Virus record (IMG/VR): IMGVR_UViG_3300044259_000026
Coordinates: 9,786 to 73,785 of that record
Source of the DNA: a virus
Taxonomy: Duplodnaviria; Caudoviricetes
Reading direction: 5' to 3' (one strand)
Length of the DNA stretch: 64,000 nucleotides
Each line of letters begins with the position of its first letter. Positions within the stretch are counted from its first letter, which is position 1. The position numbers were made by a program, and so were the translations under genes. The notes beneath the pieces are model-generated. The model was not told where the DNA came from and did not search any database. It saw nothing but the letters and a program-made list of their open reading frames with translations. Below are positions 2,624 through 37,400 of this stretch, one piece after another.

Positions 2624-4459
2624 ATGGCTACTCTGACTTGGCGTAACGTGGACGCACCCACCATCAATGCTGCTGCTGGTGTGCGGGACGCTACTGCCCT
2701 GTTCGACAACGGACTCAACCGGATCAGTGAAGCACTCTCCGGTTTCCGTGCTGAACAACAACGCGGAGCCAACCAGCAAGTAATGCTGAATGCTCTGCGG
2801 TTTACCGACCCTAAGCAGTATCAGGAAGCTTTGGCTTCTGGTGCTATTACTGGGGGTGTCGATCCAACGGCTATTGATGCCCGGACTTTGGCTGCTCTTG
2901 GTTCCCGAACCAGCGACCTTCAGAGCCAGCGGGCAAACAACCAACGGTTCGATACTAACCAGTACACCTTTGATCGTACCCGACAATTGGATACGGCAAC
3001 GGACGCTGCTCGCCCTGCTGCTGCTCGGCAGTTTGGGATCTCCGATCCTGCACTGGCTGCTCTGCAACCTGAAGATCAATTGCGCTTTGCCCAAGGCTCT
3101 CGACAACTGGTCGGTGCGGATTTGGCCAACGAGTACAACCAGTTCCGCAACCTGACTACTAAACGGGATGACCGTGATCGTCAGGAAGGTTTGGCTTTGG
3201 CTGGTGAACTCAATGACCAAGCAATTGATCCGGTCTCTGGTCGTGAAGTGGCTGCTACTGCTTCGTCCCCGGGTGCCCGAGCCATTGCTGACCAAGCCCT
3301 GTCTCGCCTGTTCCCCAATGCCTATGGTGCTGGCTCCGTGGCTGACACTACCTTTGGTTCCATGCTGCAAGCTGAGTCGTCTGGTCGCCAGTTCACCAAG
3401 GACGGCAAGACGGTCACCAGCCCTAAGGGTGCTCTGGGCATTGCCCAGATCATGCCGAGTACTGGTCCGGAAGCGGCTGCTTTGGCCGGTCTGCCGTATG
3501 ATGCCAACCGTTTGAAGAACGATGCTCAGTACAATGCCACCTTGGGCAAGGCCTACTTTGATAAGCAGATGGAGACCTTTGGCGGTGACCCTGCCAAGGC
3601 AGCTGCTGCCTACAACGCAGGTCCGGGAGCTACCCAGAAAGCAATTGCCGAGGCTGCTGCTGAAGGTAATCCTGATGCCTGGCTGTCGAAACTGCCGAAG
3701 GAAACTCAGAACTATGTACCGAAGGTGACTCGGGGTCAGGTGGATGCAGCGGCTGCTGATCTCGGTGTTCGTCAGATGCAGAACGTCGGTCAGCAAGGTG
3801 CTACTACTGACCTGTTCTCCAACCTCTCGAACACGGACACTGTAGGTACTGTCGCTGACACCCTGCTGGAGTCTGACTTCAAGGGTGCTGATCGTCAGTA
3901 TGTGATCCGTGCCTTGAACGATGTGGTGAAGCGAGCCAACACCAGTCCAGCTCAGGCTGGTGCAATCCTTCGCCGTAACATCTCGGGGGCCAGTAACAAC
4001 CCGTTCAGCGGTGACTTCTCTGGGACCACGAACTTGGGTGGGAATATTGGTTTCCGTGACCAAGGTGTGGAAGGGGATATCCGGGCACAGCAAACTGGTA
4101 TCAACATCGACCAAGCACTGACCAATCAGAATGCTGGACGTATTGCTGCTAGCCTGAGTTCGGCCTATGAGAAAGCTCAGCAAGCTGGCACCGAGTTGGC
4201 CCAGTTGGTTCAAGCCAGTCAGTCTCGACCTGAGTTGGCTCGCCAGATCCCACGTTATCAGGCTCGGGCACAGCGTGCTCAACAAGCACTCCAAGCTTTG
4301 ACTGATGCTCAACGTACCACTCCGGCTTACCGTGCTCAGCGTGAAGCGGCCAACGTTCCTCCGGAAGAAGTGAACCGGGAATTGAATAAACCGGAAGTCA
4401 CTCCGCCAACTGCCCGAGTACTTACTCGACGCGATTTGGAATTCGGTCTGTACGACTAA
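2624..4459 (+). CDS. Virion (ejection) protein with soluble lytic transglycosylase domain, N4 gp51 position
   Basis: SLT motifs MLQAESSG, SPKGALGIAQIMP and AAAAYNAGPG; GAGG RBS before ATG 2624. Confidence 0.85.
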   Translation: MATLTWRNVDAPTINAAAGVRDATALFDNGLNRISEALSGFRAEQQRGANQQVMLNALRFTDPKQYQEALASGAITGGVDPTAIDARTLAALGSRTSDLQSQRANNQRFDTNQYTFDRTRQLDTATDAARPAAARQFGISDPALAALQPEDQLRFAQGSRQLVGADLANEYNQFRNLTTKRDDRDRQEGLALAGELNDQAIDPVSGREVAATASSPGARAIADQALSRLFPNAYGAGSVADTTFGSMLQAESSGRQFTKDGKTVTSPKGALGIAQIMPSTGPEAAALAGLPYDANRLKNDAQYNATLGKAYFDKQMETFGGDPAKAAAAYNAGPGATQKAIAEAAAEGNPDAWLSKLPKETQNYVPKVTRGQVDAAAADLGVRQMQNVGQQGATTDLFSNLSNTDTVGTVADTLLESDFKGADRQYVIRALNDVVKRANTSPAQAGAILRRNISGASNNPFSGDFSGTTNLGGNIGFRDQGVEGDIRAQQTGINIDQALTNQNAGRIAASLSSAYEKAQQAGTELAQLVQASQSRPELARQIPRYQARAQRAQQALQALTDAQRTTPAYRAQREAANVPPEEVNRELNKPEVTPPTARVLTRRDLEFGLYD

Positions 4460-36193: not shown

Positions 36194-36631
36194 TTAGGCC
36201 AAGAAGCTTTCGAGGCGCAGGCCGAACAGTTGAGCAACATCCTTCAGGATCTTCTCTTCCTTTTCGTCCATCTCACCGTCAGCCAGAGCGACAGTCAGGC
36301 CAGCCACGAGAACGTCTTCCATTTCGTGCTTGTCGCCTTGGCACTGGCCGATCTCACGCATGATCTGGCTACGACCAGCCAGCATACCTACGTCACGCAG
36401 CAGGCTGTCGAAGCGGGCGTAGGTGGCACCGACTTCAGCACCGTAGTTGGCCAGAGCCGGGGTGTTGTCCAGCAGCTTCTGGACCTTGGCGCGTTCAGCG
36501 TCCGAGGCGTCACCGTCGGCGTACATGACCAGAATGGCGATGCCTACGGTGGCTTCCATCAGGTCTTTCTTTTCGAACTTGGCGATGTCACGAGCGGCTG
36601 CTTTGGCTTTCTTTTTGAAGAAACCGAACAT
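36194..36631 (-). CDS. terB: TerB-family (tellurite resistance-like) protein
   Basis: Duplicated motifs YADGDASDAE and LADGEMDEKE..L..VAQLFGL; GAGG RBS. Confidence 0.8.
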   Translation of the reverse strand: MFGFFKKKAKAAARDIAKFEKKDLMEATVGIAILVMYADGDASDAERAKVQKLLDNTPALANYGAEVGATYARFDSLLRDVGMLAGRSQIMREIGQCQGDKHEMEDVLVAGLTVALADGEMDEKEEKILKDVAQLFGLRLESFLA

Positions 36632-36682
36632 TGGGTAGATCCTCTTTGATGACAGTGAAAAGGCACTGACTACCTATTTGAA

Positions 36683-36795
36683 TGGCGCCCGCAGAGTGGA
36701 TTCGAACCACTGACCTTCAGCGACGGCGGATCTTTAACGGGAGCTACCCTAGATCCTGTGTGGCCGATGCTCTAACCGACTGAGCTACTTTGGGC
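36683..36795 (-). ncRNA. tRNA-like element with 41-nt structured anticodon loop
   Basis: D-arm TAGCTCAGTCGGTTAGAGC; anticodon stem TCGGC/GCTGA; variable AGGTC; T-arm AGTGG-TTCGAAT-CCACT; 3' CCA; imperfect acceptor stem. Confidence 0.8.
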
Positions 36796-36800
36796 ATAAA

Positions 36801-36895
36801 GCTGCATTGGTGGAATCACTGAGTGATTGCCCCTAGGATTCCCGGCCTGTCTTCAGCCACCCAGTAATTCCCCAATGCAGCCTAGAAAACTAGGC
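36801..36895 (-). ncRNA. Structured non-coding segment upstream of the tRNA-like element
   Basis: 10-bp inverted repeat GCTGCATTGG (36801-10) / CCAATGCAGC (36872-81), internal AATCAC-TGA-GTGATT, plus GCCTAG-AAAA-CTAGGC. Confidence 0.5.
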
Positions 36896-36916
36896 TACAT
36901 CTTGGTACTGCTAGCC

Positions 36917-37157: not shown

Positions 37158-37400
37158 TTATGGGCAGCAGCGAGGACTGCCACCACAGTAGTACTTGTTC
37201 CCCTCGTAATTGACGGGGCCACGTCTCCCACAGCCACAGGTGGCTTGCACTTGGAAGATCCCATCTGCAAAGCAGATATCTTCCTTTCCACCCTCTGCAC
37301 ATGCTCCGCAGACCAACTCATAAGCCGGATCGAGGATCATCCAGCTATTTGGTTCGCCGCAGCACATGCAGGTTGCTTGGATAGTTTGTTCAGTAGTCAC
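37158..37400 (-). CDS. Cys-rich protein (80 aa, 11 Cys)
   Basis: GTG start inferred; repeated QATC units. Confidence 0.6.
   Translation of the reverse strand: MTTEQTIQATCMCCGEPNSWMILDPAYELVCGACAEGGKEDICFADGIFQVQATCGCGRRGPVNYEGNKYYCGGSPRCCP

Follow-up and report, generated by a model that had tools for sequence, protein, structure and literature searches.

The 113-nt element at positions 36683-36795 of the window, by which the whole analysed stretch of 64,000 nt is meant, appears to be a functional gene for a tRNA-shaped RNA that does not decode. It would be processed like a tRNA and act through its tRNA body, and it belongs to a small family in N4-like (Schitoviridae) Pseudomonas phages. On the comparison of sequences presented here, we give this reading a probability of about 0.5. 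The tRNA shape seems to be kept for a purpose other than codon reading. The preliminary description had already suggested a non-decoding tRNA mimic; the suggestion has now gained comparative support from seven members with a near-invariant body, no 7-nt loop and a preserved helix, and its mode of action stands as a prediction. The usual explanations for tRNA genes in phages are the supply of codons and, more recently, the replacement of host tRNAs cleaved by defence systems; a conserved body that does not decode fits neither.

Architecture of the tRNA-shaped RNA gene

The Rfam tRNA model (RF00005) matched positions 36794-36687 of the minus strand with 41.2 bits against a gathering score of 29, and the match includes a 40-nt insertion in the anticodon loop. 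Its E-value over the whole window is 2.6e-5, far beyond chance. The predicted mature RNA runs from the 5' G at 36795 to the 3' CCA at 36685-36683. The 5' strand of the acceptor (36788-36795) follows a U-rich spacer and a U at -1 and forms an 8-bp stem with 36694-36687, in which pairs 5 and 6 are mismatched (A.C and A.G). U8 and A9 lie between the acceptor and the D arm (36769-36785), which has a 4-bp stem and a 9-nt loop with G18 G19. A 5-bp stem with one G.U pair follows at the position of the anticodon stem (5' strand 36763-36767, 3' strand 36717-36721). It closes a 41-nt loop (36722-36762) in place of the 7-nt anticodon loop, and this lineage-specific loop is predicted to form an irregular hairpin. 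The 5-nt variable loop and the T arm occupy 36695-36716, the T arm itself (36711-36695) having a 5-bp stem and a 7-nt UUCGAAU loop. The 3' end is composed of the acceptor 3' strand (36687-36694), the discriminator G (36686) and the encoded CCA (36683-36685). All positions of tertiary interaction are canonical in the alignment to the tRNA model. The cloverleaf features listed earlier (D arm, T arm, variable loop, anticodon-position stem and CCA) are thus all present when the minus strand is read, and the 8-bp acceptor with two mismatches is also as described.

The element therefore shares with canonical tRNAs (RF00005) the acceptor, D arm, variable loop, T arm, tertiary-pair positions and encoded CCA, but it differs from them in the part which reads codons and in the acceptor. 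A decoding tRNA has a 7-nt loop with U33 and a purine at 37, while the loop of the element has 41 nt and offers neither U33 nor an anticodon. Likewise, a fully paired 7-bp acceptor followed by discriminator and CCA is replaced here by 8 bp with two mismatches. ARAGORN in its default mode did not call the element as a tRNA.

A real tRNA gene interrupted by a small intron, from which a decoding tRNA is spliced, was considered. The insertion sits in the anticodon loop, the usual site of tRNA introns, and the intron mode of ARAGORN, a check proposed in the preliminary description, did return a model. This model, a tRNA-Ala(AGC) with a 16-nt intron at 33/34, requires a U.U pair and a 24-nt variable arm; it was judged contrived and was rejected. 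No contiguous deletion yields a loop with U33, as had been stated before. Splicing would leave the members of the family described below with one and the same acceptor but with anticodon stems that differ and no anticodon in common. Neither a group I intron nor a protein-spliced intron fits. Group I introns are self-splicing, have about 200 nt or more and contain a P1-P9 core; the insert, with 41 nt, is far too small, and no Rfam intron model matched it at E up to 10. The two 3-nt bulges and 4-bp helix of a bulge-helix-bulge intron are absent, the fold having a symmetric internal loop instead, and the phage genome contains no splicing endonuclease (tRNA_int_endo), RtcB or RNA_ligase domain. 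An intron-bearing tRNA gene is accordingly the least credible of the explanations considered, and we regard it as extremely unlikely.

Genomic context

The window covers nearly all of a 73.8-kb complete genome with terminal repeats, which belongs to an N4-like Pseudomonas phage. The nearest cultured relatives are Zuri, Ebordelon and Holyagarpour, N4-like Schitoviridae that infect Pseudomonas putida (the Zuri group). The minus strand encodes the tRNA-like gene and every surrounding gene, in the order HNH endonuclease, dCTP deaminase, three small ORFs, a long hairpin (36887-36797), a 5-nt U-rich spacer, the tRNA-like gene, a small hairpin (36670-36651) and a TerB-like gene. The assignment of the directly downstream gene as TerB-like holds (PHROG 632, E = 6e-44), and so does the separation of the element from the tRNA operon, whose three ordinary tRNAs lie 21 kb away on the opposite strand. 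No sigma-70-like promoter or terminator was found between the upstream ORF and TerB, and the first terminator-like site is at 35871-35848, so that the element probably lies within a polycistronic transcript. Compared with its shuffles, the 297-nt intergenic RNA has the better fold (z = -2.73).

The long hairpin (36797-36887, minus strand) ends 5 nt before the 5' end of the tRNA-like gene. The base of its stem is kept in Zuri, Ebordelon and Holyagarpour, and the distal stem differs in sequence yet still pairs. It probably belongs to the same non-coding array as the tRNA-like gene, and it could serve as a processing site of the RNase III type or constitute an RNA module of its own. The small hairpin (36651-36670, minus strand) lies between the CCA and the TerB ribosome-binding site. 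It is composed of 7 bp and a pyrimidine-rich 6-nt loop; the loop and a purine-rich 5' flank are conserved (hairpin and flank together at window 36651-36680), and three compensatory pair changes were seen across Zuri, Meara and contig L098. This hairpin precedes the ribosome-binding site of whichever gene follows the array (~2975-3005 in the Zuri record L001, ~1645-1675 in L091, and in L098). The conserved motif after the CCA was also considered as a repeated or general promoter; this was rejected, the motif being present in a single copy in the window and one copy per genome. Further upstream on the minus strand, positions 37158-37366 encode a cysteine-rich small ORF of about 70 aa. Its counterpart in the Zuri group (L001 ~3355-3580) is unannotated in the Zuri, Ebordelon and Holyagarpour records.

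A family with a near-invariant body

In blastn searches of phage records, the T arm and 3' acceptor strand of the element matched at about 97% in Littlefix, 98PfluR60PP, Meara, CRC2 and CL. All five are N4-like Pseudomonas phages, and no gene is annotated at the matched site. When the loci in the phage records were read, they proved to share both acceptor strands, the D and T arms and the variable loop with the element. Two more members, on contigs L097 and L098, came from a scan of metagenomes. The family as analysed comprises seven members (window, Meara, Littlefix, 98PfluR60PP, CRC2, L097 and L098) plus one near-identical relative. As the GenBank records of the carrier phages lack annotation of these genes, the family is missed by annotators. 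It is at the same time readily testable, since Meara, Littlefix, 98PfluR60PP and CRC2 are cultured phages whose hosts are laboratory strains of Pseudomonas.

The members share a body of about 60 nt, which is almost invariant and accounts for 46 invariant columns in the 7-way alignment. The T arm is the same in all seven members, and the 5' strand of the acceptor, the D stem and the variable loop are each the same in six. Even the acceptor mismatches recur, at pair 5 in five members and at pair 6 in six. Apart from one acceptor position, the differences fall on D-loop positions which are variable in real tRNAs as well. With a covariance model of the body (R1), the members scored 88-106 bits, the window 93, and ordinary tRNAs at most 45 bits. 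By these features (an 8-bp acceptor of the same sequence, invariant D and T arms, and a loop other than 7 nt on a helical arm) the element of the window is a full member of the family.

This conservation stands out from that of the surrounding DNA. The body is 91-97% identical to that of the window, while neighbouring coding DNA is 65-78% identical where it can be aligned at all, and identity to the core proteins of the window phage is only 23-55% in Littlefix and 98PfluR60PP. Covariation across homologues had been proposed as a check of the fold, and none was found in the body because the body hardly varies. Part of the identity could be due to a cassette that has recently spread by horizontal transfer. 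In another metagenome, a close relative of the window phage is identical across 36390-36911 except for a single change in 520 nt, from G to A at the discriminator. The base of its long hairpin contains about 126 additional bases. As this near-identical block also spans part of TerB, it may be merely a recombination patch.

Among 185,579 bacterial species genomes, none contains the 24-nt 3' block; the body is therefore no copy of a host tRNA. A 21-nt T-arm block is found in Met, Ile and Arg tRNAs of many phyla and therefore names no parent isoacceptor. The family is small. Model R1 found ordinary tRNAs only in 44 viral records, and exact-pattern scans of IMG/VR returned only Littlefix itself and unrelated tRNAs. 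No member was present among 80 IMG/VR loci near dCTP deaminase, where one contig (L027) has only a weak acceptor and T-arm element. The TerB neighbourhoods found in IMG/VR belong to phages of other types and lack the tRNA-like element. Other members adjoin different genes, and the location upstream of TerB, pointed out for the window, is consequently not a feature of the family.

The variable anticodon arm

The arm at the anticodon position differs from one lineage to another in both length and sequence. Its closing stem and loop measure 5 pairs and 41 nt in the window, 5 pairs and 18 nt in Meara, 3 pairs and 6 nt in Littlefix, 6 pairs and 40 nt in 98PfluR60PP and L098, 5 pairs and 6 nt in CRC2, and 9 pairs and 3 nt in L097. 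None of the seven members has a 7-nt loop. There are six unrelated arm-stem sequences and all of them pair; the product of their shuffle p-values is ~1e-15. The flanks of Littlefix and 98PfluR60PP are about 95% alike by eye and their arms have 13 and 52 nt, which suggests discrete replacement or deletion. The insert of the 98PfluR60PP type is identical at 50 of 52 positions in L098, one of the two changes turning a G.U pair into G:C, and the modules next to this arm differ much more between the two than the arm itself. The long arms of the window and of 98PfluR60PP were also compared as possible homologues, and this was rejected, their 41-nt and 40-nt loops being unrelated in sequence.

These observations bear on whether the element is a dead tRNA gene. 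In that case, indels and an internal duplication would have destroyed the anticodon loop of an ancestral phage tRNA, and the remnant would now be decaying without function. Two adjacent acceptor mismatches in most members, the absence of the cassette from the nearest relatives and the resemblance of the window insert to a decayed D-arm copy are all consistent with this. CRC2 looks like an intermediate, its acceptor being fully paired and its loop nearly normal (6 nt). Decay should however strike body and arm alike, and what is seen is a near-invariant body with arms which are unrelated and yet helical. The genome also has no functional twin from which the gene could be repaired by gene conversion. 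Random decay of the stems among homologues, the outcome that was to mark a pseudogene, agrees poorly with a body that hardly varies, and we consider a dead gene quite unlikely.

The loop of the window had been described as a 41-nt structured insert with nested helices. The insert is there, but it is not conserved, the whole anticodon arm being different in each lineage. The nearest relatives in the Zuri group have other tRNA-like cassettes at the same site, which makes the 41-nt insert lineage-specific. The nested helices of 6 bp and 3 bp are predicted by folding; comparison lends them no support, as this region is unchanged in the only close relative. Nor does the element as a whole have a better fold than its shuffles (z = -0.72). 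Part of the loop (36725-36747) resembles a decayed second copy of 36762-36788. In local self-alignment on the minus strand, 36747-36725 and 36788-36762 (the D arm and the 5' strand of the anticodon stem) share 20 identities over 23-27 nt; 2 of 200 shuffles equalled this, and a stricter test gave p ~0.09. The alignment is suggestive, and the insert may in part be a decayed internal duplication of these elements. As such, the insert of the window itself may be a junk duplication. No further copies of it exist within the window, and an origin as a mobile repeat was rejected on the ground of this single copy.

Positions 36740-36749 of the insert are complementary at 9 of 10 bases to the ribosome-binding region of TerB (36633-36642). 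Pairing between the two would make the element a cis-acting leader of the TerB mRNA which controls its translation, and the insert also repeats 7 nt of the ribosome-binding region. We estimate the chance of such a match, which was noticed post hoc, at ~0.02-0.05. The complementarity is not found in other members of the family; their inserts are unrelated, and they lie upstream of unrelated genes or at an operon end facing the virion RNA polymerase gene. The match is probably due to chance, and a TerB leader is very unlikely.

Cassette replacement and arrays of RNA modules

The closest relatives of the window phage, the Zuri group, lack the family RNA. The slot in which it would lie is bounded in them by the same conserved flanks, the long hairpin on one side and the small hairpin with the ribosome-binding site on the other. 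In Zuri, the slot holds a 99-nt element with a perfect acceptor, a T arm, CCA and a non-canonical core, which is related to a second tRNA-like gene of 98PfluR60PP. Ebordelon and Holyagarpour have a different insert of ~165 nt with a T-arm-like motif. The flanks of Holyagarpour are almost identical to those of Zuri, and the content of the slot is different. Since the nearest relatives do without the cassette, it is dispensable.

In Meara, Littlefix, 98PfluR60PP, L097 and L098, the family member lies within an array of structured modules. Each module ends with a closing stem, an ACCA-like tail and a U-rich spacer, so that the array resembles a tRNA operon. The gene downstream of the array differs among the phages, and in Littlefix the array forms the end of the early region and faces the virion RNA polymerase gene.

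This arrangement is one argument for a processing signal without further function. In such a case the module, like the neighbouring hairpin, would punctuate a polycistronic transcript, RNase P and 3' trimming would set the ends and stabilities of the flanking mRNAs, and the excised RNA would have no job. The array of modules organised like a tRNA operon fits this well, as does the lack of any promoter-like or terminator-like site between the upstream ORF and TerB. RNase P can do without an anticodon arm, which would explain the free variation of the arm, and the other modules found in the slot retain only acceptor and T arm. A signal of this kind should nevertheless show compensatory drift, and instead about 60 nt including the D arm are invariant in phages with only 23-55% protein identity. 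Conservation of the 98PfluR60PP-type insert is also against it, and fast swapping of cassettes between near-identical phages would be unexpected for a housekeeping signal. A pure processing signal is on balance unlikely.

Comparison with known tRNA-like RNAs

Plant mitochondrial t-elements and the mascRNA of MALAT1 are non-decoding, tRNA-like processing signals in longer transcripts. The element resembles them as a tRNA-shaped module in a longer transcript, from which it could be excised by RNase P and 3' processing. Those RNAs are loosely tRNA-like and conserved in structure, whereas the present family keeps a complete tRNA body with invariant sequence. Phage T4 (rnaC and rnaD) and phage T5 (RNA1 and RNA2) reportedly encode small stable tRNA-like RNAs of unknown function inside their tRNA clusters. 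Compared by description, these are like the element in having acceptor-like ends and in not decoding, and are said to be co-processed with tRNAs; they differ in their position, as the element lies 21 kb from the tRNA operon.

Special tRNA classes with unusual acceptors were also rejected. Of the features of bacterial tRNA-Sec, only the 8/5 helix and the purine discriminator fit the element, which has a D arm of 4 bp with a 9-nt loop (against 6 bp and 4 nt), a 5-nt variable loop instead of a long variable arm, and no UCA loop. In tRNA-His, which has the 8/5 helix in common with the element, G-1:C73 is followed directly by CCA, while the element has an extra purine between the eighth pair and CCA and lacks a GUG anticodon. 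A tmRNA combines a tRNA-like domain with a tag reading frame and pseudoknots; neither ARAGORN nor Rfam reported one here, and the element possesses a full D arm and a stem at the anticodon position.

YrlA and other Y RNAs of bacteria and mycobacteriophages mimic the D arm, T arm and acceptor of tRNA, and one member is cut by RNase P and receives CCA (PMC4201824). In YrlA, the RNA ends on the anticodon side, where it forms a Ro60-binding helix with a conserved motif, and the gene lies beside rsr (PMC4201824). The element, by contrast, ends at the acceptor and has no conserved Ro60-helix motif. No TROVE/Ro60 gene was found in the phage genome, and no Rfam family other than tRNA gave a credible match. 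An identity as Y RNA was rejected on the basis of the acceptor-side ends and the lack of a Ro60 gene and of a Y RNA match in Rfam.

Engineered tRNA scaffolds carry RNA inserts in the anticodon arm, and the tRNA body provides correct processing and stability in E. coli (PMC3753655). The element has the same plan, since in both a foreign, structured RNA replaces the anticodon loop of a tRNA body. The scaffolds are however a laboratory design, and a natural role of the insert as payload needs a conserved insert, which is true only of the 98PfluR60PP/L098 pair.

Known phage tRNAs are tied to host defences which target tRNA. Phage tRNAs with altered anticodon loops escape anticodon nucleases (PMC10264068), and a phage T5 tRNA is linked to PARIS (PMC11464382). 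The present RNAs are likewise encoded by phages and vary in the region of the anticodon loop. The known phage tRNAs differ in that they decode, have 7-nt loops and replace cleaved host tRNAs. As the present family cannot decode, it would have to act as a mimic or decoy.

No description of this RNA family was found in the literature or in Rfam; papers on AcrIIIA1 and on viral structured RNAs were considered and have no bearing on it.

Proposed mode of action

RNase P and the enzymes recognising CCA ends read the acceptor/T helix, the D/T elbow, a U at -1, a G1:C pair, a purine discriminator and CCA. Sequence features of the RNase P type are present in the family, which has U at -1 in six of seven members, G1:C, a purine discriminator and an encoded CCA in three of seven. 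The conserved part of the element is hence what proteins that process or bind tRNA recognise, and from this we infer a tRNA-like excision, an L-shaped fold and an action through the body. The element would be co-transcribed with the surrounding leftward run of genes. Host RNase P would cut between U 36796 and G 36795, and the 3' end would be trimmed to the encoded G-CCA at 36683. No CCA-adding enzyme was found in the phage genome, which leaves any CCA addition to the host. The RNA would fold as an L through the canonical D/T elbow, with an 8-bp acceptor giving 13 stacked pairs as in tRNA-Sec or tRNA-His. The 51-nt irregular hairpin at the position of the anticodon arm would preclude codon reading, and the only requirement on this arm may be that it is a helix. 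Excision would incidentally sever the polycistronic mRNA a short way upstream of TerB.

Selection falls on the tRNA body and not on the arm, and for this reason the RNA would work by occupying a host protein which recognises the tRNA shape, most likely as a mimic or decoy directed at a tRNA-handling factor or at a defence that targets tRNA. No ORF is shared by every carrier phage and missing from the Zuri group. Since the RNA thus has no co-occurring phage protein, a partner, if there is one, would have to come from the host. Invariance at the level of sequence, the swapping of cassettes and the location among accessory genes together speak for a specific partner and for a role as mimic or decoy. 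The tRNA shape could generally serve as a decoy or competitor for tRNA-recognising host proteins, as carrier of a variable RNA arm or as transcript punctuation.

The swapping of cassettes between the same flanks in the nearest relatives resembles what is seen in accessory or counter-defence regions, and by this analogy the non-decoding RNAs may be interpreted in a more specific manner. In this tentative and rather doubtful extension, the swapped RNA cassettes would be tRNA-body decoys, whose invariant L-shaped body traps or blocks a tRNA-recognising host immune protein and whose arm is repeatedly replaced in an arms race. Candidate targets would be anticodon nucleases and enzymes which cut or modify the acceptor end, and the arm is the part that such enzymes attack. 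If true, this would represent RNA-based counter-defence by tRNA mimicry and not by resupply of tRNA. The data do not discriminate among the functions proposed in the preliminary description, a decoy, an RNase P/E processing signal and a regulatory RNA, nor between a decoy and a plain processing signal.

Other tRNA-like elements and modules

Some further structured RNAs were observed in the course of the comparison. A second tRNA-like family is represented at ~2995-3095 of L001 (minus strand, Zuri) and ~1210-1300 of L090 (98PfluR60PP). It has a perfect acceptor, a T arm, CCA, a long hairpin resembling a variable arm and a short D-like hairpin, and both copies were undetected by ARAGORN and Rfam. 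The copy of 98PfluR60PP has a 7-nt loop reading CUA and that of Zuri a 20-nt loop; judged by its loop, the former might be an amber suppressor. A structured module of ~95 nt lies beside the tRNA-like gene in four phages (L091 1545-1640; L089 1355-1450; L090 1320-1410; and L098, on the minus strand upstream of the family member). It is composed of an 8-9-bp closing stem and two invariant internal blocks, has no match in Rfam and is absent from the window.

On a 77-kb viral contig (L005, 1300-1420), two T-arm-like motifs, one of them with an acceptor-like stem, lie between a terminator and a TerB gene; by their sequence, they are a further relic or module of tRNA origin upstream of a TerB gene. 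In Littlefix, the family member is followed directly by a tRNA (L089 1543-1676) with an Rfam score of 48.4 bits and a 70-nt insertion in its anticodon loop. A 73-kb viral contig (L094) has about 30 matches to the tRNA model, and some of its tRNAs also carry inserts.
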